A stretch of DNA of 50,180 bases, from contig JAFGJN010000161.1 in assembly GCA_016929055.1 (NCBI GenBank), forward strand, positions 1 through 50,180. Direction: 5' to 3'. A model generated the notes under the pieces. The model was not told the DNA's origin. It worked only from the letters and a program-made list of their open reading frames with translations, and made no database searches. Position numbers and translations under genes: made by a program. Numbering within the stretch: position 1 is the first letter of the stretch; each line of letters starts with the position of its first letter. Positions 5,884-42,381 of this stretch are shown in pieces. The DNA is from Candidatus Zhuqueibacterota bacterium (lineage in GTDB: Bacteria > Zhuqueibacterota > Zhuqueibacteria > Residuimicrobiales > Oceaniaggregativiventaceae).

Positions 5884-6672
5884 ATGGGCAAAGTGATCGC
5901 GATAGCCAACCAAAAAGGTGGGGTCGGGAAAACCACGACGTCGGTCAATCTGGCCGCCTGTCTGGCAGTTGCCGAATATCCGACTCTTTTGATCGATATG
6001 GATCCGCAGGCCAACAGCACCAGTGGTTTGGGGATCAATGCAAACGATCTCAATAAAACAATCTACAATGCGATCATCGAGGAGCAAGAAATCGACAATC
6101 TTGTGCTCGATACAGAGCTCAAGTATTTAAAATTGCTTCCTTCATCGATCAATCTGGTCGGCGCCGAAGTCGAATTGGTTTCGGTTATTTCGCGCGAGTA
6201 TCGTCTCGCGCACGCATTGGAAAATGTTCGCGATCAATACAAATTTATTTTGGTGGATTGTCCGCCCTCGCTGGGTTTGTTGACGATCAATGCGCTGACC
6301 GCTTCGGATTCGGTTTTAATTCCGATTCAATGCGAGTATTATGCGCTGGAAGGGTTGGGTCAGCTGCTGAACACGATACGATTGGTTCAAAAGCACCTCA
6401 ATCCCGATCTGGCCGTAGAGGGTGTGCTGTTGACCATGTACGACGCTCGGCTCAATCTGTCTCGTCAGGTAGCGGAGGATGTGCGCCGGTATTTTGATGG
6501 TCGTGTTTTTGACGTGATGATCAATCGAAATGTTCGGTTGAGTGAAGCGCCGAGTTTCGGTAAACCGATCATACTGTACGATGCAGTATCGACCGGATCG
6601 GAAAACTATATGAGCCTGGCTGAGGAAATCATCCGAAATGGCGAACAAGAAAGCGCTGGGAAGAGGGCTTAG
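5884..6672 (+). CDS. parA: Chromosome partitioning ATPase ParA/Soj
   Basis: Deviant Walker [47 protein letters not shown]. Confidence 0.97.
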
Positions 6673-7525
6673 GGCGCTGTTGCCGGATGCTCCTGCGTCG
6701 CCGGGTGAAGAACAGAGGGCGATGTCCGGAGCGATCGATTTTATTCCGGTCAACCGAATCACCCCGAATCCCTTTCAGCCGCGGGAAGTTTTCGATCCCG
6801 AACACCTGGCGGAACTGCGGCGTTCCATCGCCGAAAAAGGTATTGTGCAACCGATAACCGTTCGACGCCATGATGACGGTTATCAACTGATCGCTGGTGA
6901 GCGGCGCTTGCGAGCGGTGCGCGATCTGGAGATTCAAGAGATCCCGGCGTATATCCTCGAAATCGACAGCGACGAGGAGATGCTCGAGCTGGCGATCATC
7001 GAAAATATTCATCGAGAAGATTTAAATCCGGTCGACATCGCTCGAGGGTACAGGCGGCTGATCGACGAGTGCCGTTTGACTCAGGAGCAGGTGGCGGATA
7101 AAGTCGGCAAGGATCGCACGACGGTCACCAATTTTCTTCGCCTTCTCAAACTGCCGAGGCGGATTCAGTCGAGTTTACAGGCGGATGAACTGAGCATGGG
7201 GCATGCACGAGCTCTTTTGTCCTTACCGACAAGTGAAGAGCAGATTGCCCTGTGGCAAAAAATCGTCAGGCAAAAACTTTCGGTACGCCAGGTTGAAGAT
7301 CTGGCGCGTAACGCCCAGCGTAAAAGCGAAAAGCAGAAAAAACCGGTTGTAGTCGATCGCAGATCTTTGTATATCGAAGATGTGGAAAATCGACTGCGGA
7401 CCCATTTGACTACCAAGGTGCATATAAAATCTCGTCCCAAAGGCGGGGCGATCGAAATCGAATATTTTTCCGACGATGAGCTCGAGCGTCTCGTCAGCAT
7501 GATTTGCGGCGACGAATCGATTTGA
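6638..7525 (+). CDS. parB: Chromosome partitioning protein ParB/Spo0J
   Basis: ALGRGL ParA-stimulating peptide, [14 protein letters not shown] CTPase motif, [12 protein letters not shown]. Overlaps parA. Confidence 0.97.
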
Positions 7526-7614: not shown

Positions 7615-8520
7615 ATGGGCAAGAAAAAAAAGTATCGTAACGGCTTTCAGCTATTGTTTATTCCGGACGACCAGAGCGAGCCTAAAGCGTTTTCGGTTCG
7701 TGCCAGTCGTGTCAGAATCGTAAAAATCGCTGCGGTTCTTTTGGTTTTGCATCTGTTGGTCGGCTTGCTTGCCTATTGGCAGGTCGCCCGTCTCTATCTT
7801 AAAAACCGCGAGATGAATACACTCACGATTCAGCTCCAGGAGAACAACACTAAAGTTTACAAGTTGATAACGGCATTTGAAGAGCTCGAGGTTTCGCAGG
7901 GGAAAATCCGTTCGGCTTTGGGGTTGGGCAATGTGGAGAGCGTTGATTTGTCTGACAGCTACCGGCCGCAGGGCAATATCGATATCTATCCCGATGTCTT
8001 GCCCACGCTTGTTCCTTCACAGATGCAATTGGCCAACGCGGGGGATGTGGCGCTGGAGGATAAGCTGGGTTTTTTGCAGCGATCTTCTGCGCCTCTTCAT
8101 GGCTATCTCGAGAGCATCCCAACTTTTTTGCCGGTTGAAGGTATCCTGACCAGCGATTATGATGATTATCGCCATTTTGACCGCGGTCAACACCGCGGCA
8201 TCGATATTGCTGCACCTCGAGGAAGCTTTATTCGAGCAGCCGCCGATGGAATTGTCATGTTCGCCGGATGGACTCCCGATTTAGGCGATCTCATGATTTT
8301 GTATCACGGAAATGGTTTTTTTACCTATTATGGCCACAATCAACGATTGTTGTATAAAAGAAACGCTTTGGTGAAAAAGGGCGATCCCATCGCTCTGCTC
8401 GGAAATACCGGCCAGAGTTCTGCGCCTCACCTGCACTTTGAAATCTGGAAAGATGGGATTCCTTTGGATCCGAAGGATTTTATCCTGGCCTTTTCTCGGC
8501 CCGGCAAATGGTCTTCCTAG
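7615..8520 (+). CDS. Membrane-anchored M23 family metallopeptidase
   Basis: Basic N-terminus, one TM helix, coiled coil, HRGID (HxxxD), YYGH and GNTGQSSAPHLHFE (HxH). Confidence 0.93.
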   Translation: MGKKKKYRNGFQLLFIPDDQSEPKAFSVRASRVRIVKIAAVLLVLHLLVGLLAYWQVARLYLKNREMNTLTIQLQENNTKVYKLITAFEELEVSQGKIRSALGLGNVESVDLSDSYRPQGNIDIYPDVLPTLVPSQMQLANAGDVALEDKLGFLQRSSAPLHGYLESIPTFLPVEGILTSDYDDYRHFDRGQHRGIDIAAPRGSFIRAAADGIVMFAGWTPDLGDLMILYHGNGFFTYYGHNQRLLYKRNALVKKGDPIALLGNTGQSSAPHLHFEIWKDGIPLDPKDFILAFSRPGKWSS

Positions 8521-8542
8521 TTTAATCGATGGAAAACATGTG

Positions 8543-8950
8543 ATGTTTGGAAAACAAGAGATGAAAACCACGGAAAAAACAGGCGAACTCAACACACTGT
8601 TGGGAAAAGGATCGAGCTTTGAAGGTAACATCAAAGTCGAACACGGATTGCGGGTCGACGGTAAGGTGATTGGAGATATCACAACCAGCGATACGTTGGT
8701 GGTCGGCAAGGATGGTTCGGTCAAGGGCAACATCAAAGCTAAGAATCTCGTTCTCGGCGGCAGCATCAATGGAACCGTGCATACGACTGGCAAAATCGTT
8801 TTGGAGAACAAGTCGGTTTTTCGCGGCGAAATGAGCACTGGTAAATTGATCATCGATGAAGGAGCATTGTTTGAAGGCAAATGCTCCATGCCGAGCGAAA
8901 GTACCCGACCGGTTGAGGTGGCGTCGGCATCCGTCAAGGAACAAAGCTGA
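8543..8950 (+). CDS. Bactofilin (polymer-forming cytoskeletal protein, CcmA/DUF583)
   Basis: TLLGKGSSFEGNI..LRVDGKVIGDI..LVVGKDGSVKGNI..GALFEGKC beta-helix repeats. MFGK N-terminus. Start reassigned to ATG 8543. Confidence 0.93.
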   Translation: MFGKQEMKTTEKTGELNTLLGKGSSFEGNIKVEHGLRVDGKVIGDITTSDTLVVGKDGSVKGNIKAKNLVLGGSINGTVHTTGKIVLENKSVFRGEMSTGKLIIDEGALFEGKCSMPSESTRPVEVASASVKEQS

Positions 8951-9216
8951 TTAACGGCCGCTCTTTTTTACGCAGGTCAGCCTGTTTCATTCATATCTTC
9001 AGGTATACCCTGTGCCGGTGTCGACAGTTGGTTTAGATCAGCGATGCGAGGCCAAATATCGCTCAGCTTTTCTGATGGAAACAACCCTGATTTTTTCCTT
9101 CCTCAACAGGCAACAACCCAAGCCGCTTTGGTTTTTCGCGCCGAGCGAGCGGAGGTGGCTGCCGATTTGCCCCTGCATGAGCTGGTTTGATATTCCTTTA
9201 CAAGTCAAATAAATTC

Positions 9217-9245
9217 TTGACATAGTGGAAAAATCTTTATATTAT
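9217..9245 (+). promoter_or_regulatory. Near-consensus sigma70 promoter for the TPR/ExbBD/TonB-like cluster
   Basis: TTGACA(9217-9222)-N17-TATTAT(9240-9245) with an AT-rich upstream tract. Confidence 0.7.
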
Positions 9246-9312
9246 TTTTCAGATTGAATTCGGACCAGTTCACTGACGCCTTTTTCATATACAAGGTTGA
9301 CGAGGTTTCTCA

Positions 9313-12189
9313 ATGACCCGAAGGCTAGCTAACCCGCACGGCATGCTGAGGCGAGGGATGTTGCTGTTTTTGGCCGTATGGGCTTGCCGGCCGACCTTGT
9401 CATACTCGGGTCCGCCGTCCATCCCGGACAAGACCCAACTCCCATTTGAAGAAAAACTGCGTTACTATCTCGATCAAAACACCCAGGATATTGTCGAAGA
9501 GTTGTTGGCGCGCGAAATCCAACTCTTGCAGTTGGTCAACGGCATGTATGGAGAGCTGTTGGTTCGCGGTGACCAAGCTCTGCCTGCCTTTCAGAGCATC
9601 ACTCAAGAGCGCGATCGCCTGATCGAATCCTATGGTTCAGAACTTGCGTCGCTGCTGCATATCTATGACGATCTCGACCGATTACAGCGTATCGCCGAGT
9701 ACGGCGGCGATTTGCGAGCCTTAAAAGTCATCGATGACAATCGTGACAGCATTAAAGCCGCCATGGATCACCGCAAACTCTATAAAAAAGGGATCTATTC
9801 TCCGGAGCGTGTCGGTGGCATGATCGATTCCTATACGGCCGAGTTGGACACCCTGCTCGGGATGCACGATACGCTGGAATTTCTCAAGGTGCGGGCTCGC
9901 GCCAACAACGACACCCTCGCTTTGGAGCAAATCGCCGACCAGCAAAAAAATCTGATGCGCGTTTTCAGTTCCTGGGGTGGGTTGGGGCCATTGAATGAAG
10001 AAGATTATATTCGTTACCAGATCGAAGTTGAAAAGATCGCAAAAGTAGCGGGGCAAATCGACAAAGTCCTGCCACCCGGTGAAGCCGCGCGCGAAGACGA
10101 TTTGCTTCGAATGAAAAAGCAACTCATGAACAAACTCGACGCCTCGGTTTTTGATCTGCTTTCCCGTTCAGGATATGACCGCAATTTTTATCCCACAATT
10201 TCCGCCTATATCGATGCCTGGAAGGGAGAGCGAACGGTTGATATCCTGACGCGGTTGGCAGAATATCAGGCCGTTCGAAAAAAGCTACTTGCTTCCGGGG
10301 CGCCGGCGGATATCGAACGCCTTTTCGCCGATCAGATTTCGAATGCTTTGCTCAATTTTGCCGACGGTCTCTATTTGACCGCCGAATATCAACTGCGGGA
10401 TGCAATGGAAACCTGGCCCGAGCGGGATAAATTTTTTACTTCACTCAAGTATTATATCGGTGAATCGCGCCACCATCGCCAAGCTCTGGAGGGCGCGCGG
10501 GAATTCTATCTAAAGGTCCTGGAGGATCCGACGCCGTCGATTTATCACGCCGAGTCCTTGGTGCGCTTGATGCAGTATGCCGCCGATTTTGAAGGGACCA
10601 GTGCATTTCTGAATTATTACAACCATTTTTTGGAGATGCAATCGGTTGCACCCAGGCAACTCGTCGACTATGCTCATTACTTGACCGCCAATCGCTATTT
10701 CGACAATGCCCAATTTCATCAGACCAAAGAAGCTTTGTTGCAGATCGAGTCTGGAAGTGAATTTTTTCTGCCCGCTCAGCTTTTGCTCAGTGTGGTCTAT
10801 TTGAATTTGGATGAAACCGATTCGGCAATCCCGATCCTCGAAATGCTTGTAGATCGCGCCAGTTATCCCTGGACCAACCTCAATACGGCCTATATTCGCA
10901 ATACTGCGCTTTTACGCCTGGGCATGCTCTATTATCAACGGGGCAATTTTCTTCGAGCTCAAACCCTCTTTCAAGAGGTGTCAAAAGGGTATAGCGGATT
11001 TGACAAGGCATTGTTGGGGCAAGCGTGGATTGCCCTCGAACAAGGGGATTACAGCCGCGTGATCGAAAACAGCCATTCGCTTTTGCGCAATTATCTGGCC
11101 TCGAATTTTACTTATGAGGCTTTGGCTCTTTCCGCTCATTGCCAACGAATCCTCGGTCAATCCGAAGAAGCGCTGCATGCCTATCGATATGTCGTGCGAG
11201 CCCGGCATAATCTGGATATGCAACAAGAGTTCGATCGCGAACGCGCCACAGCTTTAGACCAAGTGCGGGAGCTCGATCGACTTGAACGAGATGCTCTGGA
11301 GACACGGCGCGAAGATCTCTTTTTATCTATCACTGGTGTACGCCAAGAGTTGAACGAGTTTTTGCTGCGGGTCAAGGGAAAAAGCGATACCGGCAATTTG
11401 CTGTTACAAGATTATTACGATGAGCGGATGGATATTCTTCGACATTTGGATAAGACCGATGAAATTCTCGAGTGGGCGGAAAAAGAAAACCGTCCCGATA
11501 TTGCCGCCAAAGCGATGCAGCAACGCGCCCGATTGGTTCGCGTGTTGGAGACGTTTCAGGCCGACCAGGATGTAGTCAACACGGCTTACCTGGTTGATTT
11601 TCCTCTGGTAGCCAAAGAGGGCGGCATGATCTATCGACGGGAAAATCTGGCTTCGGTTTATCGCGATCTGGAATTGGAAAAAAGAAGGCTGCAGGTTCGT
11701 TTTGATGAGATCGAGGTTTTGCAATCCCGCGCTGCCGATCAAGGCACGTTTTCCGATCGACTGGATCTCGAATTGTTGGAAAAAGATCTGGTCCGTTTGC
11801 AGGATCGATTGAGCGCTTTTCGAAAATGGATGGTCGAAGTCGTGCCAGACGAACCCGCTTCACAGCTCGATCGCTGGAGTGATTTTTCCGGCTTTGAAAT
11901 AACCGACATTATATATCGGTCCCGCCAGGAAAAACTTGAACAGATCAACACATTTACCACTCAAATTCAGACGATCGAGAGTATCTTTAGGGCTCGCAAG
12001 CAAGCGATCGAAGAACGTTTGGAGCAATTTGAAGCAGAAGTTGCGGCTTTGCAGCAGGTGTGGTTGGAAAAAAAGATCGCTTTGGAGCAGCAGGAAAAAC
12101 AAACCTATTTTGACAAGTATTATTTCGATGTTCGGGAACGGGAGGAAGAGGATTGGGAAAACCGCCTTCGAGAATTGATTGAGCGCTGA
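9313..12189 (+). CDS. Exported TPR/coiled-coil protein, GltC-like
   Basis: Signal-like N-terminus. TPR block ALLRLGMLYY...ALLGQAW...YEALALSA followed by a long coiled coil. First gene of the Agl-Glt-like cluster. The GltC assignment is inference. Confidence 0.7.
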   Translation: MTRRLANPHGMLRRGMLLFLAVWACRPTLSYSGPPSIPDKTQLPFEEKLRYYLDQNTQDIVEELLAREIQLLQLVNGMYGELLVRGDQALPAFQSITQERDRLIESYGSELASLLHIYDDLDRLQRIAEYGGDLRALKVIDDNRDSIKAAMDHRKLYKKGIYSPERVGGMIDSYTAELDTLLGMHDTLEFLKVRARANNDTLALEQIADQQKNLMRVFSSWGGLGPLNEEDYIRYQIEVEKIAKVAGQIDKVLPPGEAAREDDLLRMKKQLMNKLDASVFDLLSRSGYDRNFYPTISAYIDAWKGERTVDILTRLAEYQAVRKKLLASGAPADIERLFADQISNALLNFADGLYLTAEYQLRDAMETWPERDKFFTSLKYYIGESRHHRQALEGAREFYLKVLEDPTPSIYHAESLVRLMQYAADFEGTSAFLNYYNHFLEMQSVAPRQLVDYAHYLTANRYFDNAQFHQTKEALLQIESGSEFFLPAQLLLSVVYLNLDETDSAIPILEMLVDRASYPWTNLNTAYIRNTALLRLGMLYYQRGNFLRAQTLFQEVSKGYSGFDKALLGQAWIALEQGDYSRVIENSHSLLRNYLASNFTYEALALSAHCQRILGQSEEALHAYRYVVRARHNLDMQQEFDRERATALDQVRELDRLERDALETRREDLFLSITGVRQELNEFLLRVKGKSDTGNLLLQDYYDERMDILRHLDKTDEILEWAEKENRPDIAAKAMQQRARLVRVLETFQADQDVVNTAYLVDFPLVAKEGGMIYRRENLASVYRDLELEKRRLQVRFDEIEVLQSRAADQGTFSDRLDLELLEKDLVRLQDRLSAFRKWMVEVVPDEPASQLDRWSDFSGFEITDIIYRSRQEKLEQINTFTTQIQTIESIFRARKQAIEERLEQFEAEVAALQQVWLEKKIALEQQEKQTYFDKYYFDVREREEEDWENRLRELIER

Positions 12190-12285
12190 TCGAACCGAGC
12201 CTTGAATTTGTAACCCTCTCTCTCCTTCACGATCCGGGACGCCTCATGCTAGAGGCAGCTCTATACCTCATACGGGATTGAATAG

Positions 12286-15200
12286 ATGAATGCCAAGAAA
12301 ATTGCTCATGCCACTCTCATTGGAGTCTTTTTACTTTTGGCATTGAACGGTGTGCGAGCGCAGGAACCTCTGGTTTTTACTCCTCATCTGCAATCGCTAT
12401 CGCTTACCGATTCGGTCATTCAGGCCTTCAGTATAGAGGAACTCGAGCGGTTTCGTTCGTATTATTCACGCGAGCGCGAGCGGCTCAAGTGGGAACGAGA
12501 AGAGTTGCGCAAACAGGGGATCCGCGATGCCGAGCTGTTTCTCAGTCGCAATCCCCGGACCCGTGTTGGGGACAAGATATTGATGCGCCTGGCAGAGCTC
12601 TATTACGAACAGGAACAAGAAGAGTTTTCCAGACGAATGCAAGAATACGACCGTCTCTATTCTTTATACGAGCGCGATCAACTGGATGAAGCGCCACCAG
12701 AACCCCAGCGCGATTTTTCTCGCGCGCTTGTGTCCTACCAGACAGTAGTCGATCGCTACAGCAACAGCGACCTCGTGGATGATGCCCTTTACAATATCGG
12801 TGTCCTGCTCGAAGACTCTCAAGACCCCGACAGCGCACTGACCATCTATCAAAAAATCATTAAGGACTTTCCCGAATCGAAACTCCAGCCGGATGTCTTG
12901 ATGCGTATTGGAGAATACCATTTCAATCCGCCGCGCAATGCAGTAGTTCGGGCCATCGACTATTATCAACAGGTTTTGGCTTTTAAAGAAAGTCCCCGCT
13001 ATGATGAGGCTTTATATCGACTGGGATGGTGTTTCTACCGTCTCAGCGATTACGACAAGGCCATTTCATATTTTACCATTTTGGCCGATGATATCCAGAC
13101 CGTTCTTTCCTATGATCCGCTGCTAAAATACACCAACCCCTCTTTGATGGACGAATCAGTCGAGTATATCGGTCTCAGTTTTTTGGAAAAGGGCGGACCC
13201 GATGATGCTGCGGACTATTTGCGCTCCATTGGCGGACGGGATTACGGCGCAGCGATTCTGAGGCGTATGGGCGATGCCTACATGCAGGAAAAAGAAGATT
13301 ATCCCCGCGCGATTCGGGCGTTTGAGCTGATTATTGAATTTTATCCCAACCATGCCCAGGCGCCGACGATACAAGGGCATATCGTTCAGTGCCGGCGCCG
13401 GATGGGAGAAGAGGCACTCGCTTTTCTGGCACGTGATCTGCTCTTTACTCGTTACCGGGAAGGATCTGATTGGTGGGATGCCAATATTGATAAAAATGCA
13501 CGTGAACAGGCTTATATTCTTTCCGAAAGTGCCTTGCGCGACAATGTGACCTTTCTGTTCAACAGGGCACAAGAGACCGATCGGGGTGATCTCTATTATC
13601 AGATGGTTACTCAAAGCCGTCGTTATCTCCAAACTTTTCCAAAGGATTCGAGTGCCGCTCTGATTCATTGGAATATGGCTTTAACACTCGACACCAAATT
13701 GCGCCAGACTGGGGATGCCTATAATGAATACATGCGCATCAGCACCCTGTATTGGAATAGCCAGTATCAGCATTATGCTGCAAAGAACGCTGTTGCATTG
13801 GCGCGTGAGGCGGCCGAAGATACACTGGCACAGGTCAAAAAGCGAGTTTCTGAAGAAAAAATAGTCAGCCTAAGCGACCTAGCGGATGAAGCGGAAAAAA
13901 CCGGACAAGCGCGATTTAATTTTCGTGCACGAATGCAGTTACTCGAAACACCCTTGTCTTTGGAAGAAGAACGCCTGGCTCGAGCCTATGACAATTATAT
14001 CAAATTATTTCCGCACGAAGAAGAGACACCCCTCTTTCTCGCCAATGCCGGTGCTTTGTACTATCGTCATCATCAATTTAAAAATGCGCTCAAATATTTT
14101 AAAACACTTTTGAGGCATTTCCCTGGTTCTGAACAGGTCAATCAGGCGCGATTCGCCATTTTGGAAAGCTATTTTGGAAACGCCGATTTCGGCAGCTCGG
14201 AAATTGTCGCAAGAAGAATCATTGCCGATCCGGACGCCTCCCTCGAGCTGGTGTCACGAGCACGCCGTCGGTTAGCGGAATCGATCTTTTTGAATGCTGA
14301 AATGCTGGCAGAGTCGGACCGCCACCTTGAGGCCGGAAACGAATATCGGCGCATGGTCAACGAGGCACCTGAAAGCACGTTTACCGATTTGGCCCTTTTC
14401 AATGCTGCGCTTGAATATGACAAGGCAAGTGAATTCATGCGGGCGATTGAAACCTATACACTTTTGTTGGCCACACATCCGCAATCCGGTTATGTTTACG
14501 ATGCTCAGAACAACCTCGCTTTCGATTATGTCGAGTTGGGAGATTTTCACAATGCTGCGTTAACCTACGAGAGATTGGCCGACATTCATCCAGAAGAAAA
14601 CAAAGCTCGAGATGCGCTTTATAATTCGAGTTTTTATTTCGCCAAGGCCGAGGATTGGCAAAACGCAATCAAGATCAATCGATTGTTTTTGCAAAGATTC
14701 CCGCAGGACAGAGAAGCAGCCAACCTATCCTTTGAAATCGCCGGATTTCATCGGCAGTCGGGCGAATCGGATCAAGCTCATCAATCCTTGGGCGATTTTA
14801 TCGCCGGCTTTCCGGATCACCCTCGAGTGATCGAAGCTTTTTTCAGACGCGGGAACTATCTCGCCGAACGCAATCAGCCTTTGCAGGCGGTCTCTGAATA
14901 TCAAAAAGCGCTTTCCACAAACCGCGAAAGAGTCCAAGTGGGTATGGAAAGCGACGATTATTATGCGGCCGAGTCCGAATTCGCGATGGCGATGCTCAAA
15001 TATAAAGAGTTTGAAAAGATCGAATTTTTACTGCCCTCTGCCGATATGGCGCGCACCAAGGAACGAAAAAAGGATTTGTTGCTGGAAATCATTCGCCATC
15101 TGAACAACTGCACCACGTTTGGAACCAATCGTATTTACGAAGCCACCTTTATGATCGGCCGAGCTTACCAAGAGTTTGCCCGGACCTGGTCTGATCAGGA

Positions 15201-16866
15201 AATACCCGATATGGATGCAGTGCGCCGAATTGTGGCGCAAAAAGAAGTCAATGACGCCGCTCGTGTTTTATACGAACGAAGCGCCGAAGCCTACCGAAAT
15301 GGTATTCAAGTCCTGAATCGCCTGGGATCGACTTATCGCTCGACACTTTTGCGCGAAGCGGAGACCGCAGCGTCGATTCCTGTCGACACGCTGGCGATCG
15401 TCGCTCAGGATACGATTCTGCGCGCGGTCGATCGCTGGTCGGTGCGAAGCAAAGAGAATCTATCGCAGGTCAATTTCGAATCGGCGGATATATCGCTGAA
15501 AACAGCACGAATCGTCGCCAATGCCCCCGTACCACCCGGATTGGGCGATTTCCCACAACTGGTCTATAAAAAACAGGTGATCGATTCTGTGGTGGTGCCC
15601 ATCATTCGCTCCAGCCTGGATGGCTATCGATTGTGTTTGATTGAAGCGGATTCCCTGCAGATAAATTCACAGTGGGTGGAATTGGCCAAGCAAAAGTTGG
15701 TGTCGACCAAGCATCTCGCCGCTTCTTATTACCAGGATTTAACCCGGCAGGGGTTTGATCTGATCGGAAAAAACTTTGATGCCTACAGCGATCGAGTCTT
15801 TGGCGAGGGATCCTTTGATGATCACTTTTATGACCTACAGGTAATTGCTCAGGATGCCACAAACTCGATCACCTTTTCGCTGGCAACGATCATGAACAGT
15901 CTGGACCGATATGCTGAGGCGATACGGTTGGCAGGCCGAATGGATATCGAGGAGCACTATATTGTCAGCAGTCGCGATTCTATGATGATCACCGCTTATA
16001 ATTTTGCCCTGCAAGCGGATTCTTTGAGTCGGTATTCCAAGCGTCTGGCGGATCAGGCGCGGGAAGGATTTCTCAAGACCGAATCCCTTTTATTGGAAGA
16101 GGGTTTGTTCGCGTTTAACAGCAATTATTTTGCCCTGCGCGATATGGAGCGCGAAATACTCGAAAACGGTTATTCCATGGCTCAGGATTTGGAAATAAGC
16201 AACCTCTATTCAAAAAATCTGACCTTGCAATTGGTCCGATTCGATCCGGAGGAGTATGCTGGTCTAATCGGTTTATCTATCTCCTCTTTTTCTGTTGTCA
16301 CCGACAGCAGTTGGAAAGCTTATCCCAACTATACGGAAGGCTGGACTCTCGGCGGTTTCGACGACTCGAATTGGGGTGCTGCCATGATTGTAGATCCGGC
16401 AGTGGATGACGCCTGGTCTGCAATTTGGGTGTTTGCAGAGAAAGATACGATCGTTTCCGCCACAGAGGAAGATTCGACGCAAGTTCATGTTCTTCTGCAG
16501 CCGGCAACAACGGCCTTTTTTCGCAAAGCGATCCTCGTTCAGGGATTGCCTGTCGGATGTACGATTCGGTACATCCCCCACCCGGATGTCACTCTCTTTT
16601 TCAATGGAGATTTGGTCAAACGTACCGAAGGAACAGATTTCAAGAATTCCGACGGAGTAGTCGATGTTTCAGAATTGCTGGTCGATGGTTCCAATGTATT
16701 GGCGGTGGAAGTCAAAGGAACTGAAGCGTCCACTCAGAAATTTTCGGCAAGAGTTGAGCTGCGCAGTTTGCCGGAATGGGATCAACGAGTCCGGATGCTG
16801 AATCCTGAATTTGCCGATAAAGAAACCCAGGAAAAGGTTCTGATCGAAAGAAGCCGCATTCCCTGA
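12286..16866 (+). CDS. Large exported TPR protein, GltD/AgmU-like, with a C-terminal jelly-roll domain
   Basis: Signal peptide (VRA|QE). ILMRLAELYYE, DDALYNIG, LMRIGEYHF, ALYRLGWCFY and ALFNAA TPRs typical of AgmU/GltD-type proteins. Confidence 0.75.
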   Translation: MNAKKIAHATLIGVFLLLALNGVRAQEPLVFTPHLQSLSLTDSVIQAFSIEELERFRSYYSRERERLKWEREELRKQGIRDAELFLSRNPRTRVGDKILMRLAELYYEQEQEEFSRRMQEYDRLYSLYERDQLDEAPPEPQRDFSRALVSYQTVVDRYSNSDLVDDALYNIGVLLEDSQDPDSALTIYQKIIKDFPESKLQPDVLMRIGEYHFNPPRNAVVRAIDYYQQVLAFKESPRYDEALYRLGWCFYRLSDYDKAISYFTILADDIQTVLSYDPLLKYTNPSLMDESVEYIGLSFLEKGGPDDAADYLRSIGGRDYGAAILRRMGDAYMQEKEDYPRAIRAFELIIEFYPNHAQAPTIQGHIVQCRRRMGEEALAFLARDLLFTRYREGSDWWDANIDKNAREQAYILSESALRDNVTFLFNRAQETDRGDLYYQMVTQSRRYLQTFPKDSSAALIHWNMALTLDTKLRQTGDAYNEYMRISTLYWNSQYQHYAAKNAVALAREAAEDTLAQVKKRVSEEKIVSLSDLADEAEKTGQARFNFRARMQLLETPLSLEEERLARAYDNYIKLFPHEEETPLFLANAGALYYRHHQFKNALKYFKTLLRHFPGSEQVNQARFAILESYFGNADFGSSEIVARRIIADPDASLELVSRARRRLAESIFLNAEMLAESDRHLEAGNEYRRMVNEAPESTFTDLALFNAALEYDKASEFMRAIETYTLLLATHPQSGYVYDAQNNLAFDYVELGDFHNAALTYERLADIHPEENKARDALYNSSFYFAKAEDWQNAIKINRLFLQRFPQDREAANLSFEIAGFHRQSGESDQAHQSLGDFIAGFPDHPRVIEAFFRRGNYLAERNQPLQAVSEYQKALSTNRERVQVGMESDDYYAAESEFAMAMLKYKEFEKIEFLLPSADMARTKERKKDLLLEIIRHLNNCTTFGTNRIYEATFMIGRAYQEFARTWSDQEIPDMDAVRRIVAQKEVNDAARVLYERSAEAYRNGIQVLNRLGSTYRSTLLREAETAASIPVDTLAIVAQDTILRAVDRWSVRSKENLSQVNFESADISLKTARIVANAPVPPGLGDFPQLVYKKQVIDSVVVPIIRSSLDGYRLCLIEADSLQINSQWVELAKQKLVSTKHLAASYYQDLTRQGFDLIGKNFDAYSDRVFGEGSFDDHFYDLQVIAQDATNSITFSLATIMNSLDRYAEAIRLAGRMDIEEHYIVSSRDSMMITAYNFALQADSLSRYSKRLADQAREGFLKTESLLLEEGLFAFNSNYFALRDMEREILENGYSMAQDLEISNLYSKNLTLQLVRFDPEEYAGLIGLSISSFSVVTDSSWKAYPNYTEGWTLGGFDDSNWGAAMIVDPAVDDAWSAIWVFAEKDTIVSATEEDSTQVHVLLQPATTAFFRKAILVQGLPVGCTIRYIPHPDVTLFFNGDLVKRTEGTDFKNSDGVVDVSELLVDGSNVLAVEVKGTEASTQKFSARVELRSLPEWDQRVRMLNPEFADKETQEKVLIERSRIP

Positions 16867-16886
16867 AAGAAAATAGGAGTTGAACG

Positions 16887-17243
16887 GTGACCCTAAAAAT
16901 ATTCCAGATGGTTTTACTGCTGAGTGCTGTTGTTTTTGCGCAGGAAACGCCTTTGCCCGACACATTGCGGAGAAGTGAAGAGATCCCGCAGGTTATGCGC
17001 GCGGGCGAGTTTGAGGAACAGGTCCTCGAGACAATCAATATTGAGGCGATCATTGAAAAGCCCAGTGTAACCTTTGTACCGAAGCGAGCCGAAACCCAAG
17101 TCGGATCGTTGCCTCTTGAGCATCGTTCTTTTGAAGAAGAAATGCGACAAAAACCAGATGTGGTCTCGGAATATGGTCAAGATTTGGAAGGCGGTAAGCG
17201 GATCAAAAAAATAAAAAAATTACTTGCGAAAGAGGGTAAATAA
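16887..17243 (+). CDS. Small exported protein, GltF/CglF-like
   Basis: GTG start with AGGAG SD, signal peptide (VFA|QE), LETINIEAIIEKPSVTFVPKR...RSFEEEM motif resembling GltF/CglF, and position within the cluster. Confidence 0.6.
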   Translation: MTLKIFQMVLLLSAVVFAQETPLPDTLRRSEEIPQVMRAGEFEEQVLETINIEAIIEKPSVTFVPKRAETQVGSLPLEHRSFEEEMRQKPDVVSEYGQDLEGGKRIKKIKKLLAKEGK

Positions 17244-17386
17244 AAATATATTTTTTCTTTACAAACGTTGATCTTGTCAGGAACCCTGCATCAGGTTGTG
17301 TTGCTTTTGCGTCGGTTGCGGAGAAAGGTCGGCTAGAGAGAACCAGTGTTTTGCAGGTCTATCGTTACCGAGAAAGGGAGGTCTGA

Positions 17387-18037
17387 ATGTCCGAAATCCT
17401 CAGAAATTTCAGTCCGGATGTAGCCGGATGGCAGTTCATGTGGATTCTACTTGTACCGGCGGTTTTTACCGTTGCCATCGCCGTTGAACGGTCCATTTAT
17501 ATTTTGATCAAGAGCGACATAAATGCCAAAAAATTTATGGAAGAAATTCACAAACTGATCAAGGCTGGTAAAGCGAATCAGGCGTTGGATCTATGTGAAC
17601 GCGCTGGCGATCGCGCTTTGCCCAAAGTGGTGAGTTGTGGATTACGCGCGGTTGTGGATAAAGAGGAAGTGGATTTCCGGACCATTCAAAATTCAGTGGA
17701 TGAGGGAATGCTTGAGGTCGTTCCCAAGTTGGAAGAACGCACCCATTTTCTGGCCATGTTGGCAAATGTGGCAACTTTGATCGGTCTGATGGGAACGATT
17801 TATGGTCTGATACTTTCATTTCGTGCGGTTTCCGCTCCGGGAATCGATCCAACGGAAAAAGCGCGTTTGCTGGCCGCCGGTATATCCACCGCCATGAACA
17901 CGACATTGACAGGTTTGATCATCGCAGTTCCGGCCACTCTTTTTTATAGTTATTTACAGAGCCGCACGAAAAAGATTATCGATGAGATCGACGAACATTC
18001 GGTTAAATTGATCAACCTTTTGACCGGGAATCGCTGA
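17387..18037 (+). CDS. MotA/TolQ/ExbB proton channel subunit (AglR-like)
   Basis: Three TM helices, LANVATLIGLMGTIYGLI and LLAAGISTAMNTTLTGL. Strong AAAGGGAGG SD. Confidence 0.92.
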   Translation: MSEILRNFSPDVAGWQFMWILLVPAVFTVAIAVERSIYILIKSDINAKKFMEEIHKLIKAGKANQALDLCERAGDRALPKVVSCGLRAVVDKEEVDFRTIQNSVDEGMLEVVPKLEERTHFLAMLANVATLIGLMGTIYGLILSFRAVSAPGIDPTEKARLLAAGISTAMNTTLTGLIIAVPATLFYSYLQSRTKKIIDEIDEHSVKLINLLTGNR

Positions 18038-18039
18038 GT

Positions 18040-18576
18040 ATGGCTTACCAACCTTCAAAACGAAGCAGCCGTTCACCCGCTCCGATCGAAATCAACATGT
18101 TCCCCATGATGAATTTGATGGTGGTGCTGGTGCCGCTGTTGCTGTCAACTGCAACGGCAATCAAGATAGGTATCATTGAACTGAATTTGCCGCAGGCTGC
18201 GGGTGGTCCTGCGTCCGAATTGCAGTTGCCGAAAGAACCGAAACAAAATCTCGATTTAACGGTGACCATCACTTCGGAGGGGCTTTATCTCTCCAGCGTA
18301 CAAGCTGTTTTGCAAGACCCTGCGGATGGTGGGCCAACCCTGGCAAAGAATGCAGACGGCTCCTATGATTTTCAACGCTTGAACGAGATGCTGGTCGAGA
18401 TCAAGAGAAAAATAGCCGGCGGTTCATTGGATACCAAACGCATTATACTGCAAGCTGAATCGAATATCGATTATCAGACGCTGGTCAGTACAATGGATGC
18501 CGCCCGATCTTTTGTGGTTGATGATGCCGAACGCGAGCTCTTTCCTGAAGTGTCGATCAGTGCAGGGATTCTCTGA
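18040..18576 (+). CDS. ExbD/TolR family protein (AglQ position), Asn in place of the conserved Asp
   Basis: EINMFPMMNLMVVLVPLLL TM, IELNLP, IILQAE..IDYQTLVSTMDAAR. Confidence 0.9.
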   Translation: MAYQPSKRSSRSPAPIEINMFPMMNLMVVLVPLLLSTATAIKIGIIELNLPQAAGGPASELQLPKEPKQNLDLTVTITSEGLYLSSVQAVLQDPADGGPTLAKNADGSYDFQRLNEMLVEIKRKIAGGSLDTKRIILQAESNIDYQTLVSTMDAARSFVVDDAERELFPEVSISAGIL

Positions 18577-18603
18577 ACCGGTCGATTTTATTGAGGATGA
18601 TTT

Positions 18604-19098
18604 ATGGCTTTTATCCCGTCACGAATAAAAAAGCACGATACCAGTCCCAAGCGAGTATCGCTTAATTTGACTTCCATGATGGATATGTTTACAATCATTT
18701 TGGTTTTTCTTCTCAAAACGTATTCAACGGAAGGTCAGCTGATCCATCCCTCTGAAAATTTAACGCTGCCGATTTCATCGGTAAAAAATCCTGCCGAAAT
18801 CGCTCTGGATGTGGTGGTGTCTAAAGAATGGATCATGGTCAACAACGAGCCGGTTGTGCTGATAAGCGAGGTTGAGGAACAGCCTGGCCTGATCATCGAG
18901 CCCTTGAGCCGAATGTTGCAGCGTTATGCCACGGAAGCCCGGCGCATGGAAGAGATGTACGGGGTAAAATTTTCCGGCAAGGTCACCATTCAAGGTGACA
19001 AGGCACTTGCCTTTCGAATGCTGATCAAGGTAATGGCAACCTGTGGCCGTTCGGAATACCCGAATATGCGGTTGGTGGTCTATCAAAAGGAGGCTTGA
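18604..19098 (+). CDS. ExbD/TolR family protein (AglS-like)
   Basis: LNLTSMMDMFTIILVFLLK TM with Asp27, LTLPIS, TIQGDK...KVMAT. Confidence 0.9.
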   Translation: MAFIPSRIKKHDTSPKRVSLNLTSMMDMFTIILVFLLKTYSTEGQLIHPSENLTLPISSVKNPAEIALDVVVSKEWIMVNNEPVVLISEVEEQPGLIIEPLSRMLQRYATEARRMEEMYGVKFSGKVTIQGDKALAFRMLIKVMATCGRSEYPNMRLVVYQKEA

Positions 19099-19205
19099 GT
19101 CGGCTAACGATCAAGGATGGTGGGTAACCATGTTTGGCGCCCAGTTAAAGTCGAGCCGAACGAGAGTGTTTTTTACGGAGGTGTCTTATCTCTGCTCTTG
19201 CCCTA

Positions 19206-20309
19206 ATGAATGATTTCAAAAAACGTCCGTTCGAAGATATGGATCGGACGTTTTTGATTGTTTTGGCTTTGTCGTTTTTGTTTCATTTTACGACGGTGAT
19301 ATATTTTGTTCTCAATCCCCTGCCGTCAAAGGGAATTGTGCACACCGAAGCTCTCAAACGTGTGCAGGAAAGCTATGCGAATGTGGTGTTGGAATCAACG
19401 CCGCTCGAGTTTACCGGCAATATGCTAACACTGCCGCCTGCGGTGAAGCAAGAAATCGAGCGATTTGTTCCGTCAAGCGGTTCTTCGGAAACCGCTCCAC
19501 CTTCGAGTGTTCTGCCGACGCAAACACCTCCCGCCACGGCGAATTTAGCGGAAACGAAAAGTCCGGGCGGGACGGTAGATCGTGGCGTTGGGCGCGGCGG
19601 CGGGATAACCGGAACTGGCAATCCCGATGTGGCCAACCAAGGTTTGCTGGGGATTCTCACCAGTCCCAGCGGTGATCGCACCGACAATGCCATACAGGAT
19701 GTTTTGGCGCAGGGTACAATCCAGGAACAGGATTACGATAAGGCTCTGCGCAACATGGATCGTCTTGCCTCCCGCGGCCAATCCACAAGTGGCGGCGGGG
19801 TTGAAGGCAGCGGTACTGGCGGAAGCGGCGGCGTTCAGCGTCAGGCCATTACGAGCGGTCGAAGAACGGAGGGTGGTAATCTTGACGGTGTGGTTACAGG
19901 ATTGGGCAGCGCGGAATCCGCGGCATTTCAACGCCAGGCGGATTTTGCCGCATCGCAATTGGCTCCTTTAACGGATGAAGGTGAAGAAATTCAAACTTCC
20001 GGCGGGCGTTTGGCCGGTCGCGATATCAATCTGGTATCCACTGTTGTCTATGGGCACAGTGCTGCGATTCAATATTGTTATGAACGCGAACTCAAGCGCA
20101 ACCCCGATCTCAAAGGTAAAGTGGTTATTCGGTTCACCATAACTCCTGCAGGACAAGTGACCAATCCTCGAATTGTCTCGTCTACACTTAAAAGTGAAAG
20201 CGTCGAGCGCTGCATTTTGTCACGTGTCAGCCGATGGGACGATTTTGGACAGATCGATGCATCGCTGGGCAATGCGACCTTCCGCCAGGTATATACGTTC
20301 GGTTTTTAA
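19206..20309 (+). CDS. TonB-like energy transducer with AgmX/PglI C-terminal domain (GltG-like). True start may be ATC 19188.
   Basis: TM with SxxxH (SFLFH), Pro/Gly-rich linker, C-terminal IQYCYERELKRNPDLKGKVVIRFTI...STL..VERCI with a Cys pair. Confidence 0.87.
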   Translation: MNDFKKRPFEDMDRTFLIVLALSFLFHFTTVIYFVLNPLPSKGIVHTEALKRVQESYANVVLESTPLEFTGNMLTLPPAVKQEIERFVPSSGSSETAPPSSVLPTQTPPATANLAETKSPGGTVDRGVGRGGGITGTGNPDVANQGLLGILTSPSGDRTDNAIQDVLAQGTIQEQDYDKALRNMDRLASRGQSTSGGGVEGSGTGGSGGVQRQAITSGRRTEGGNLDGVVTGLGSAESAAFQRQADFAASQLAPLTDEGEEIQTSGGRLAGRDINLVSTVVYGHSAAIQYCYERELKRNPDLKGKVVIRFTITPAGQVTNPRIVSSTLKSESVERCILSRVSRWDDFGQIDASLGNATFRQVYTFGF

Positions 20310-20390
20310 ACCTTCTCCCCAGAGTTTTTTTCAGCAACCAGCGTTTCCGCCAGAGATTTCGGCGGCAGTGCCGCCTCATATCTCGATTGA

Positions 20391-20442
20391 TAGAAAAATC
20401 ACCGGTGTCCGGTCGTTCGACCGGACACCCATGTAGAAAAAT
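20391..20442. repeat. 12-bp perfect inverted repeat flanked by 9-bp direct repeats
   Basis: GGTGTCCGGTCG(20404-20415)-TT-CGACCGGACACC(20418-20429). TAGAAAAAT at 20391-20399 and 20434-20442. Confidence 0.8.
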
Positions 20443-20491
20443 ATGGATTTTTTGACAAAAGAACCAACAGCCAGAGTCAGAGGAATTGGAA

Positions 20492-22249
20492 ATGAAATGG
20501 AAAAGAACACATACGTGTGGAGATTTGACCAGCCGACAAGTAGGGACAGAAGCTGTTTTGATGGGGTGGGTTGAAAAACGACGGGATCATGGTGGGTTGA
20601 TTTTTATAGATTTGCGAGATCGTTATGGAATTACCCAGATTCGGATCGATCCGTCATCTGCGGCTTACGAAGAAGCCAAAAAACTGCGCAGCGAATATGT
20701 CGTCGGATTTAAAGGACGGGTTGAGCGACGCCCCGACAGCATGGAAAACAAAAATCTGCGTACTGGCGAAATCGAACTGGTCGCTGCGGAGATCGATCTC
20801 ATGAGCACAGCTCAAACTCCACCGATTCAGATATCCGGCAAAGTTTCCTCCTCAGAAGATTTGCGTCTCAAATATCGCTATCTCGATCTTCGCAATCCCC
20901 AGATGCAACATAACCTGATCGTACGACACCAAGCGGCACAGATCGTGAGAAATTATTTCAGTGAAAAGAACTTTGTCGAAATTGAGACACCCTACTTGAT
21001 GAAAAGCACGCCGGAAGGCGCTCGGGATTTCCTTGTGCCCAGTCGAATCTGGAAAGGCCGATTTTTCGCCTTGCCGCAATCACCGCAGACCTACAAGCAA
21101 TTGTTGATGATGTCGGGATTCGACCGTTATTTTCAGATCGTGCGCTGTTTTCGTGATGAAGATTTGCGCGCCGATCGTCAGCCGGAATTCACCCAGATCG
21201 ATGTGGAAATGTCTTTTGTCGATGAAGAGGATATTTTTGTCGTCGTTGAAAGTCTTGTGCAACGGATTTTCAAACAAATTCTGGATATCGATCTGTCTCT
21301 TCCCCTGCCGCGGTTATCCTATTCAGACGCCATAGCGCGTTACGGTTGCGACAAGCCCGATCTTCGTTTCGGCGCTGAGATCCATTCCTTTTCCGATTGG
21401 GCCAAAAAAGTCGAATTTCAGGTTTTTCGCGATAATTTGGAGCGCGGCGGCGTGATTGCCGGTATTTGCGCAAAACAGTGCGGCGGGTATTCGCGCAAGC
21501 AAATCGATCAGCTGACAGAGCAGGCGAAAAATTTGGGTGCCAAAGGTTTGGTGGCGATCAAAATTAAAGAAAATGATTGGGACAGTGGTCTGAACAAATA
21601 TTTTACACCGGCACAAAGATCGGCCTTGATTCAAGAAATGAACGCTCAGGAAGGCGACCTTTTGCTGCTTGTGGCCGATACGGAAGAAGTGACGCTGCAT
21701 GTTTTGGGGGAATTGCGGTTGCTTTTAGCCAAACAGGAAAAGTGGATTGATGGGAATCGGTTTCAATTCACCTGGGTCGTCGATTTCCCCTTGTTCGAAT
21801 ACAGCCAGGAAGAAGAGCGCTATGTTGCACGCCATCATCCTTTCACTTCCCCCAAAGCAGAGGATGTCAGCCGGCTGCAGGAGCATCCGGATAAGGTTCG
21901 AGCTCGCGCTTATGACCTGGTTCTCAACGGCAGCGAAATTGCTGGCGGAAGCATCAGAATTTCGGATCAAAAACTGCAAAGCGATATGTTTCAGGCGTTG
22001 GGGATATCAGAAAGCGAAGCACGCGACAAATTCGGGTTTTTATTGGATGCTCTTGCATTTGGAACACCGCCACACGGCGGCATCGCCTTTGGTTTTGACC
22101 GATTGGTCATGTTGCTAACGGGCACTACATCCATACGTGAGGTGATCGCTTTTCCCAAAACAGCAAGTGCCATGTCGCTGATGGATGGTGCACCATCCCA
22201 GGTGAGCGAAAAACAATTGCTTGAATTGGGGATTAAGCGAATTGTTTAG
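20492..22249 (+). CDS. aspS: Aspartate-tRNA ligase (probably non-discriminating)
   Basis: RTHTCG, RRDHGGLIFIDLRD, STPEGARDF, LPQSPQ, FRDEDLRADRQPEFTQID, GAD insert, PPHGGIAFGFDR. ATG 20492 with GAGGA SD. Confidence 0.98.
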   Translation: MKWKRTHTCGDLTSRQVGTEAVLMGWVEKRRDHGGLIFIDLRDRYGITQIRIDPSSAAYEEAKKLRSEYVVGFKGRVERRPDSMENKNLRTGEIELVAAEIDLMSTAQTPPIQISGKVSSSEDLRLKYRYLDLRNPQMQHNLIVRHQAAQIVRNYFSEKNFVEIETPYLMKSTPEGARDFLVPSRIWKGRFFALPQSPQTYKQLLMMSGFDRYFQIVRCFRDEDLRADRQPEFTQIDVEMSFVDEEDIFVVVESLVQRIFKQILDIDLSLPLPRLSYSDAIARYGCDKPDLRFGAEIHSFSDWAKKVEFQVFRDNLERGGVIAGICAKQCGGYSRKQIDQLTEQAKNLGAKGLVAIKIKENDWDSGLNKYFTPAQRSALIQEMNAQEGDLLLLVADTEEVTLHVLGELRLLLAKQEKWIDGNRFQFTWVVDFPLFEYSQEEERYVARHHPFTSPKAEDVSRLQEHPDKVRARAYDLVLNGSEIAGGSIRISDQKLQSDMFQALGISESEARDKFGFLLDALAFGTPPHGGIAFGFDRLVMLLTGTTSIREVIAFPKTASAMSLMDGAPSQVSEKQLLELGIKRIV

Positions 22250-22416
22250 TGCTTTGAAAACAGGTGGAATCACCGCTCTTTGGTCGTTCGACAAAAGACC
22301 CTGATGCTATTCTATTCAAATCAATGAGAAGGAATATAAACGCGAGAGCATGGGTTTTAATAGACATAATTTCAGTATTACTAGGAACGTGACCGTTTTA
22401 ATATATAATTTTCTTC

Positions 22417-22445
22417 TTGACTCTTATTCGTTTTTTTATTAACAT
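22417..22445 (+). promoter_or_regulatory. Putative sigma70 promoter of the lipoprotein-LysM pair
   Basis: TTGACT(22417-22422)-N17-TAACAT(22440-22445) with an AT-rich upstream region. Confidence 0.55.
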
Positions 22446-22536
22446 GCTTAAAGTGAGAGTGTTCAAAAAATAAACAGATCCTGAAGCACCAAAGAGGTTG
22501 TTAATCTCGCAGTCCTTGAAAGGAGGTGTACAATTG

Positions 22537-22812
22537 ATGACAAAGGCGATCCGGATTATTGTGACCCTCTCGTTGGTTGCCCTGTTTGCGTCCGTCGTTC
22601 TGACGGGGTGTAGCAAACATCCGAATCAGGAGCAACTGCAGCTTTTGGAGGAAACCAAACAAGCCGCACTGGCAGCTGAACAAGAACTTGCGGATTGTGA
22701 AAAAACCCAGGCTGAGGTCAAGAGTCAACTTGCCGACAAAAAGCAAGAATTGGCGAACGTGCAACAAGAAAAAACAGATGTTTCCAGTCGTTTAGCGGCC
22801 ATGGGAGAATGA
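22537..22812 (+). CDS. Small coiled-coil lipoprotein
   Basis: AGGAGG SD, lipobox LTGC, then about 65 aa of Ala/Gln/Glu/Lys-rich heptad helix. Confidence 0.85.
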   Translation: MTKAIRIIVTLSLVALFASVVLTGCSKHPNQEQLQLLEETKQAALAAEQELADCEKTQAEVKSQLADKKQELANVQQEKTDVSSRLAAMGE

Positions 22813-22843
22813 CACTTAACCACAAATCACTGGAGGGAAGGTG

Positions 22844-23698: not shown

Positions 23699-23782
23699 GA
23701 GCGTGAAGCGAATTGCGACAAACGTGCTCGGCGCGGTTTACTATCTCTATTGTCCGGCGATCGTTTTACGTGGATCCAATTG

Positions 23783-23816: not shown

Positions 23817-23823
23817 ATTGATA

Positions 23824-42374: not shown

Positions 42375-42381
42375 ATTCGAC

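Follow-up and report, generated by a model that had tools for sequence, protein, structure and literature searches.

The operon of seven genes at positions 9217–20309 of the window (the whole analysed stretch of 50,180 nucleotides from a Candidatus Zhuqueibacterota bacterium) raises the question of whether the core of the Agl-Glt machinery of Myxococcus has a counterpart outside the myxobacteria, and what such a counterpart would do there. An earlier note on this DNA had read the operon as such a core. The window is one contig of a metagenome-assembled genome (MAG; 4.05 Mb in 366 contigs, 90.5% complete) of an uncultured sediment bacterium. The operon is likely to belong to the family of the Agl/Glt-type 'core complex', which it would represent in the KSB1 lineage, that is, to encode a trans-envelope machine driven by the proton-motive force (PMF), and not a gliding apparatus.

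Scans of the window proteins against the Pfam and NCBIfam families, from which the identities given here derive, and the list of open reading frames (ORFs) bore out the seven gene parts and the lack of a receptor, tolB and pal that the earlier note had described, and a scan for promoter-like sites bore out its promoter. The seven ORFs are co-oriented on the + strand with intergenic gaps of 2–143 nt. A promoter-like site is followed by two large tetratricopeptide repeat (TPR) proteins (TPR-A and TPR-B), a small exported protein, ExbB, two ExbD proteins (ExbD1 and ExbD2) and a TonB-like protein, here called the tail protein, and then by aspS. No gene for a TonB-dependent receptor, TolB or Pal was present in 9217–20309 according to the ORF list and the family scans, nor was there an OmpA-family ORF in this range (ORF list and Pfam). 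In the passages of Luciano 2011 that deal with gene content (PMC3169522), the Agl/Glt core complex comprises the Group B genes gltC, gltD, gltE, gltG, aglR, aglQ and aglS and one extra gene at one locus.

The tail protein consists of a transmembrane helix (residues ~15–37), a Gly/Ser/Thr-rich linker of ~230 aa (15% Gly, with an invariant G146/L148 motif) and an AgmX/PglI C-terminal domain, in which Cys291 and Cys336 are invariant in 22 sequences. As a positive control, the NCBI-named GltG of a Myxococcales MAG (P0183) reached 984.4 bits with the GltG model and 105.6 bits with the tail-domain model. BLASTP aligned the tail protein to this GltG with 33% identity over 69 aa (E 9e-13), and both cysteines coincided, within YCY and E.C motifs. 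In a comparison of the cysteine pattern and the end domain that included 12 of the 22 window-type tail sequences, the Cys pair was present in all window-type tails examined, in the tails of loci L134 and L136 of a third phylum, in the tails of the type II clusters described below and in P0183–P0185. It was missing from tails of the type encoded in a paralogous cluster on contig C111, from an orphan tail on contig C310 and from ordinary TonB. The window-type tail of L134 matched the GltG model over positions 324–646, from the transmembrane helix to the end. On these alignments, the window's tail protein is a GltG-type transducer minus the cytoplasmic FHA part.

Other searches with the tail protein were less informative. 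Sequence search against PDB gave marginal TonB matches (E 0.24), tblastn against plasmids gave no match, and a search for longer proteins carrying the end domain gave two uninformative matches. None of five 'delta'-labelled or related genomes had a GltG over the cut-off. In the Protein Atlas, look-alike clusters of the tail were commonest in Pseudomonadota and Fibrobacterota, which is a lead only.

The motor proteins were well below the equivalog cut-offs of the known systems: the window's ExbB reached 70.9 bits with TolQ (cut-off 221) and 46.1 bits with ExbB (206.2), and the TolR equivalog gave 27.7 bits on the window motor (127.3). The IQ-TREE analysis of 29 ExbB sequences placed 22 window-type and two C111-type sequences in one clade on a long branch (support 100/98), apart from the three ordinary ExbB of the genome and from E. 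coli TolQ and ExbB. The FastTree analysis of ExbD included the window and 11 of the 21 other loci, spanning families, together with ordinary ExbD and TolR. It grouped the first ExbD of both paralogous systems together and the second likewise, with ordinary ExbD and TolR separate; on this topology the split between ExbD1 and ExbD2 is older than the split of the two paralogous systems. A grouping with ordinary Ton or Tol systems, which the earlier note had named as part of the result that would contradict it, was thus not seen for ExbB and ExbD, and the tree of the tail end domain left the matter unresolved.

In ExbD, TolR and MotB, a transmembrane Asp carries the proton. ExbD1 has an Asn in its place, in the alignment column of the Asp of E. 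coli TolR and ExbD. The Asn is present in 21 of 22 window-type sequences (L126 has Asp), in all three sequences of L134–136 and in both C111-type copies, while ExbD2 keeps the Asp in all 22 aligned window-type sequences. All ordinary ExbD compared carry Asp, unlike ExbD1, and both ExbD of the type II clusters (L137–143) have Asp as well. A PDB sequence search with ExbD2 gave no match. This stator asymmetry, with the Asn conserved across three phyla and in a paralogous system, limits in a testable way the models for the turning of such 5:2 motors.

The gene order was compared in 22 loci from across the phylum, with one Calditrichota-labelled MAG added. All seven genes were found in the window's order at 20 of the 22 loci (19 by BLAST; in L112 after the small gene had been read by eye), which is far more than expected by chance. 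Of the two other loci, L120 lies on a contig that ends before the tail gene, and L128 (G066:C11) retains the order of TPR-A, TPR-B, small-protein-like ORF and tail but lacks the ExbB and ExbD genes between them. The gene aspS follows the operon at 15 of the 22 loci, in two phyla, and in L134–136 of the third phylum; for an unrelated housekeeping gene, so stable a neighbourhood is unusual.

The most specific marker of the operon is TPR-B, for which matches were taken as orthologue-level at E ≤ 1e-83 with frames of ~1430–1640 aa or fragments at contig ends. Of the 167 species genomes of the phylum, 129 have such an orthologue (127 of 165 without two genomes marked unpublished, G163 and G167), 35 have paralogue-level matches only and three have no match. 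In the Calditrichota-labelled phylum, that of G035, which includes genomes with megabase-scale contigs, the orthologue was present in 80 of the 86 species genomes. Every one of the 31 genomes of the order has a tail-domain protein. Searched with a profile of the last 527 residues of TPR-B, 1.84 billion representatives yielded 125 clusters at E ≤ 1e-30. The window-type system is widespread inside a few phyla and not universal.

The third phylum, that of G172, had the tail domain over the cut-off in 17 of 401 sampled genomes. The loci L134–136 of this phylum show the window gene order, the small gene included, while L137–143 have a different arrangement, here called type II: TPR, ExbB (~260 aa), ExbD, ExbD, Cys-paired tail (~335 aa) and TPR. 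Type II is possibly a third branch of the same family. The record label of this phylum, Pseudomonadota, was rejected, as no TolB was found in the five genomes tested; the phylum is probably Bacteroidota in the wide sense, and the type II clusters can therefore not be equated with the gammaproteobacterial core complex.

The sequence distribution indicates that the operon is ancestral in the window's phylum and in the Calditrichota-labelled phylum, that is, in at least two phyla of the FCB group. The presence of the cluster here is the rule, and it is not the notable occurrence in a non-myxobacterial genome that the earlier note had taken it for. Near-universal and order-conserved presence in at least two little-studied phyla, instead of sporadic transfer, argues for a basic envelope role.

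That the genome is not myxobacterial was itself supported. Among named homologues, those nearest to the tail protein and to its paralogue are labelled 'candidate division KSB1 bacterium' by NCBI, and the next Calditrichaeota. In the placement check with AspS, identity to named records was at most 65%, and the top labelled matches were Kryptonium, Melioribacter, Ignavibacteria and Calditrichota MAGs. A 16S rRNA gene was not found in the genome. The genome belongs to the FCB group, most likely to KSB1.

Both large TPR proteins have SPI-type signal peptides and no conserved lipobox. The AlphaFold2 model of TPR-A (pLDDT 78.1) consists of long helices at residues ~45–300, a TPR core at ~300–615 and long coiled helices at ~617–936. 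The gliding_GltC model NF033756 was matched by 14 of the 23 TPR-A orthologues (E ≤ 0.1, best 1.9e-14), all far under the 450-bit cut-off, and GltC was the second commonest family among the matches of these orthologues after the generic YbgF model. TPR-B has TPR arrays with CpoB/YbgF- and BamD-like modules, and its orthologues exceeded the 90.1-bit cut-off of TIGR02795 (YbgF/CpoB) in 21 of 23 cases, with BamD-like matches throughout. A helical region at residues ~1000–1330 is followed by a C-terminal beta-sandwich at ~1333–1495 (nt ~16282–16770), modelled within residues 1000–1526 at pLDDT 87.2. In Foldseek this beta-sandwich matched, with a probability of 1.00, the domain for sugar binding at the N-terminus of GH2 glycosidases. 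Against 6d50_A the VIA Z score was 13.3, with a root-mean-square deviation of 4.1 Å over 136 residues, and many GH2 entries had Z scores of 10–13. The modelled fold suggests a glycan-linked target, while a sugar-binding-type fold alone is no proof that TPR-B binds sugar.

The small exported protein is 118 aa long from a GTG start, or 111 aa if the ATG at 16908 is used. It has a signal peptide, a core E..L..I.IEA.IEKP.V.I.PKR...RSF..E and a basic C-terminal tail; across 21 sequences, residues E44, L47, P59, V61, R80, F82 and E85 do not vary. The protein matches no family of Pfam or NCBIfam. Its motif recurs in the C111 paralogue (139 aa), in L112 and in L134–136. With its conserved strand motif the protein may correspond to the 'extra gene' of the core complex and may act as a GltF-like adaptor.

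A second, collinear paralogous cluster of seven genes lies on contig C111 (~15215–26615, locus L085). It encodes TPR proteins of 486 and 957 aa, the small protein, ExbB, ExbD of 154 and 170 aa (the first of the Asn type, the second of the Asp type) and a tail of 461 aa. Ahead of it stand two genes without assignment, one for a membrane protein of 727 aa and one for a putative outer-membrane protein of 452 aa. The 486-aa TPR protein has a weak GltC match (29.5 bits). The C111 tail has an FHA-like N-terminus (its homologue P0135 has Pfam FHA) and matched the GltG model over positions 224–646 with 88.5 bits. Tails of the C111 type were found in all 31 genomes of the order. Orphan tail proteins without adjoining motor or TPR genes were also noted, at C310 6262–6939, L108 18380–19543 and L109 18120–19289, that of C310 adjoining a response regulator and a ParA-like ATPase; such orphans may plug into motors encoded elsewhere.

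Several observations weigh against assignment to the core complex. No outer-membrane partner is encoded in the operon. The window's own TPR-A did not match the GltC model at E ≤ 0.1. None of the 23 TPR-B orthologues matched the Glt-specific models at E ≤ 1e-5, their similarity being of the generic CpoB/BamD type, and the GltE model NF033758 met TPR-B at E 0.09, while 25 matches elsewhere in the genome were stronger; as the same model had matches in 12 of 14 control genomes, it reports a generic TPR signal. The tail protein reached 67.6 bits with the GltG equivalog NF033760 (cut-off 650), with model positions 472–626 matched, and with its helix starting at about residue 15 the two cytoplasmic FHA domains that precede the helix in GltG are absent. 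In the unresolved tree of the tail end domains, long-branch TonB sequences fall inside. The S-x3-H of the tail helix, part of the SHLS motor-binding motif as presented in the passages of PMC12204202 on motor binding, is kept only in the closer families and replaced by N or E in the distant ones. The kinship of the motor to Agl is suggested by architecture alone, binding between the operon parts is proposed by analogy, and the likeness to a Fibrobacter cluster with the same run of TPR, TPR, ExbB, ExbD, ExbD and TonB, likewise envelope proteins, is one of gene names and order alone.

Of the match to the Agl-Glt core that the earlier note had drawn, the composition, the gene order and the class of the tail protein remain, while no Glt-specific similarity of TPR-B, no full-length GltG and, among the gliding parts, no CglB were found. 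On a specific GltC/GltD similarity of the TPR proteins, whose lack the earlier note had counted among its refuting signs, the results are divided: 14 of the 23 TPR-A orthologues match the GltC model, and the window's own TPR-A does not. For gliding as the function nothing in favour was obtained.

For the operon as a core-complex member, the established workings of 5:2 motors (Ton, Tol and Mot) suggest a mechanism, as does the Agl-Glt AlphaFold model, as far as the latter is set out in the passages of PMC11761067 on GltG. ExbB would form an inner-membrane channel around a heterodimeric plug of ExbD1 and ExbD2, and proton flow through the single Asp site of ExbD2 would drive a conformational or rotary cycle. 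The N-terminal helix of the tail protein would dock on ExbB, and its 230-residue flexible linker would span the periplasm and present the disulfide-braced TonB-like end domain. This domain would take its partner by strand addition, the best candidates being the small protein, through its conserved strand motif, and the two TPR/coiled-coil scaffolds; the small protein and the scaffolds would then take the positions of GltF and GltD in the published GltG model. Since TPR-B ends in the sugar-binding-type beta-sandwich, the output is probably force that acts, at the wall or the outer membrane, on a structure linked to glycan. The force may serve envelope maintenance, or the moving or organising of surface complexes.

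A bolder version makes the operon an ancient envelope machine of the FCB group, near the ancestor of Agl-Glt, which with one Asp per ExbD heterodimer would pull a TPR scaffold that binds glycan over the wall or outer membrane and do the coupling of Tol-Pal where TolB is missing, or move surface enzyme complexes, for which the Fibrobacter cluster gives a hint. We regard this version as distinctly unlikely in its entirety.

On function, a serious rival is that the operon is a stand-in for Tol-Pal/CpoB, in which the motor would pull CpoB-like TPR scaffolds and coordinate outer-membrane constriction with wall synthesis at division. It concerns function and is compatible with Glt-core homology; we rate it as unlikely. 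The YbgF/CpoB modules of TPR-B and their recurrence in the orthologues would fit it, as would the almost phylum-wide, housekeeping-like retention and the position of the operon, with genes for ParA, ParB, an M23 peptidase and a bactofilin immediately upstream, although the peptidase is upstream in only six of the 22 loci, many of whose flanks are short. Nor was a TolB equivalog (TIGR02800) found in the genome, which is 90.5% complete (81.3 bits against 343, all matches being PD40 repeats inside other proteins), and according to the relevant section of PMC12204202 no tol-pal loci are identifiable in Bacteroidetes. Yet the operon itself has no Pal or TolB-like gene, its ExbB and ExbD are far under the TolQ and TolR cut-offs and in the trees lie at a distance from their E. 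coli counterparts TolQ and TolR, and the 38 of 167 phylum genomes without a window-type TPR-B show that it is dispensable there. The existence of two paralogous systems and of orphan tails also speaks against such a stand-in.

It is very improbable that the operon is an ordinary Ton system, which would energise TonB-dependent receptors for nutrient uptake with the TPR proteins as accessories. Public records do name homologues of the tail 'TonB family protein' or 'energy transducer TonB', the tail is over the cut-off of TIGR01352 tonB_Cterm (31.3 against 27.1 bits), and TonB-dependent cellodextrin import has been proposed by the authors of PMC6851124, in the part on these genes, for similarly named Fibrobacter genes. 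Also the layout ExbB-ExbD-ExbD-TonB is a common Ton layout, found in this genome on contig C277. But ordinary Ton sets are already present in the genome, on C277 and C188, and their TonB reaches 71.8 bits with tonB_Cterm and only 24.6 with the AgmX/PglI tail model. The score of the window's tail with Pfam TonB_C (22.1 bits) is below the cut-off of 24.6, its ExbB is set apart by the 100/98 branch, its ExbD1 lacks the Asp of the ordinary ExbD, and no receptor gene adjoins the operon in any of the 22 loci. Hardly credible is the remaining proposal, that the operon is the core of a working Myxococcus-style machine for gliding or surface-polymer transport with the other outer-membrane and cytoplasmic parts elsewhere in the genome. 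The parallels with the Agl/Glt architecture, the sugar-binding-type domain of TPR-B, the putative outer-membrane protein and FHA-bearing tail of the C111 cluster and an MglB-like ORF on contig C53 (60.8 bits against a cut-off of 200) could be cited for it. MglA was not confirmed, though, the ORFs next to the MglB-like one had no family, and the CglB model NF033757 had no match in the 90.5% complete genome at E ≤ 1. The GltJ model meets only the shared end domain of the tail (30.1 bits against 450), and the tail has no cytoplasmic FHA part with which to reach a cytoplasmic platform. According to the section of PMC3169522 on the core genes, these are insufficient for motility.

The coordinates of the parts of this probable core-complex operon are collected in the table. 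The site at 9217 ranks top of 19 promoter-like sites in 8500–20700, and an Rfam scan of 8400–9400 gave nothing. The hairpin at 20404–20429, which has no T run directly 3' on the + strand, may mark the end of the operon as a putative terminator.

Table. Features of the operon and its borders in the window.
Feature	Position	Strand	Evidence or remark
Sigma-70-type promoter-like site, TTGACA-17 nt-TATTAT	9217..9245	+	11/12 positions match; consensus match alone
TPR-A, 958 aa, secreted, all-alpha, GltC-like position	9313..12189	+	Pfam TPR_6, 37.8 bits
TPR-B, 1526 aa, secreted scaffold	12286..16866	+	TIGR02795 124.9 bits vs 90.1; BamD 81.6 vs 81.4
Small exported protein, 118 aa	16887..17243	+	Signal peptide, conserved core
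ExbB/TolQ-family proton-channel subunit, 216 aa	17387..18037	+	PF01618 (MotA_ExbB), 87.6 bits
ExbD1, 178 aa, ExbD/TolR family	18040..18576	+	PF02472, 49.8 bits; motif P-M-M-N-L-M
ExbD2, 164 aa, ExbD/TolR family	18604..19098	+	PF02472, 41.0 bits; motif S-M-M-D-M-F
GltG-type TonB-like tail protein, 367 aa	19206..20309	+	NF033768 (AgmX/PglI C-terminal domain), 86.6 bits vs cut-off 40
GC-rich palindromic hairpin, 11-bp stem, between tail gene and aspS	20404..20429	.	Sequence
aspS	20486..22249		Downstream of operon

Upstream of the operon are parA (5884–6672), parB (6638–7525), the M23 peptidase gene (7615–8520) and the bactofilin gene (ORF 8438–8950, PF04519, 92.2 bits). M23 peptidase and bactofilin are a recognised cell-shape pairing, of which the earlier note had not listed the bactofilin. 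A conserved-looking minus-strand ORF at 8281–8937 was rejected as an antisense shadow of the bactofilin gene. Further downstream in the window, a 397-aa ORF without family (29167–30360) precedes the gene of a MinD/ParA-type ATPase with an N-terminal GYF_2 domain (30703–32025; PF14237, 37.7 bits), and an AsmA/DUF748-like 1100-aa protein followed by a DUF1318 protein forms an envelope pair on the same strand (39072–42942). A giant ORF of more than 2351 aa (43127–50179) runs off the window; it has N-terminal PD40 (TolB-type propeller) repeats and many TPR repeats, and reached 96.8 bits with the TolB model (cut-off 343).

No description of the operon in KSB1 or Calditrichota was found in the literature, and the supplements of Luciano 2011 may already draw the small gene and the order. 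Public records also call the tail 'AgmX/PglI C-terminal domain-containing protein'. Compared with the Agl-Glt and Agl-Nfs machines of M. xanthus, the operon has the same paired cysteines in its tail domain as GltG and GltJ, a TolQ-like channel accompanied by a pair of TolR-like subunits that differ from each other, and periplasmic TPR scaffolds, and its small, largely unstructured exported protein occupies the position of GltF. In the AlphaFold model of Agl-Glt, as given in the passages of PMC11761067 on GltG, GltG sits on GltD and a strand of GltF pairs to the GltG sheet. The window differs in that its tail has no FHA domains and that neither CglB, which was sought in the genome, nor a GltJ-type protein was found.

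With Tol-Pal/CpoB the operon shares a motor of the 5:2-type family, a transducer that crosses the membrane once and carries a long linker, and the CpoB-type TPR modules of TPR-B. It differs in the lack of TolB and Pal, in motor parts far under the Tol cut-offs, in TPR proteins 4–6 times the length of CpoB, and in two ExbD-like subunits that are unlike each other, one of them without the Asp. The same gene logic as in the window is found in the PVC-group clusters of TPR, tolQ-like, two unlike tolR-like and von Willebrand A transducer genes, as far as these are laid out in the corresponding sections of PMC12204202, which do not mention GltG. The PVC-group transducer, single-pass as in the window, ends in a von Willebrand A fold, and that of the window in a TonB-like disulfide-paired domain.

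The Fibrobacter succinogenes S85 genes FSU_2396–FSU_2403 are named OmpA, TPR, TPR, ExbB, ExbD, ExbD and TonB family in the gene descriptions of PMC6851124, according to which they are up on cellulose, and the TPR and OmpA proteins are part of a surface or vesicle complex with cellulases. An OmpA-family gene leads this cluster, unlike the operon of the window. KSB1 is not, to our knowledge, cellulolytic in the Fibrobacter manner. The Fibrobacter cluster is the sole experimental hint for a likely relative of the operon.

The closest comparison is the core complex itself. Its carriers, in the survey part of PMC3169522, are gammaproteobacteria, one betaproteobacterium, Geobacter and Fibrobacter succinogenes, so that a member of the FCB group is already among the published carriers, and a later survey took in a single FCB genome, as far as the sampling described in PMC9946355 goes. 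The operon and the core complex have in common the single locus, the TPR proteins, one TolQ/ExbB-like gene beside two TolR/ExbD-like genes that differ from each other, a TonB-like protein of the PglI/AgmX class with one membrane pass, a further small gene and the lack of gliding-specific genes. The differences are that the window has two giant TPR proteins and not three TPR genes, and that its TPR-B has no detectable Glt-specific similarity and ends in the sugar-binding-type beta-sandwich. The earlier note had called the role outside myxobacteria unresolved, in agreement with PMC3169522, where the core genes are discussed, and with PMC3858216, where the core complex is termed a possible 'basal transport machinery' in 2013. 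The question of this role has been open since 2011, and is here sharpened, not solved, by an operon that would be a conserved core-complex member of the FCB group.

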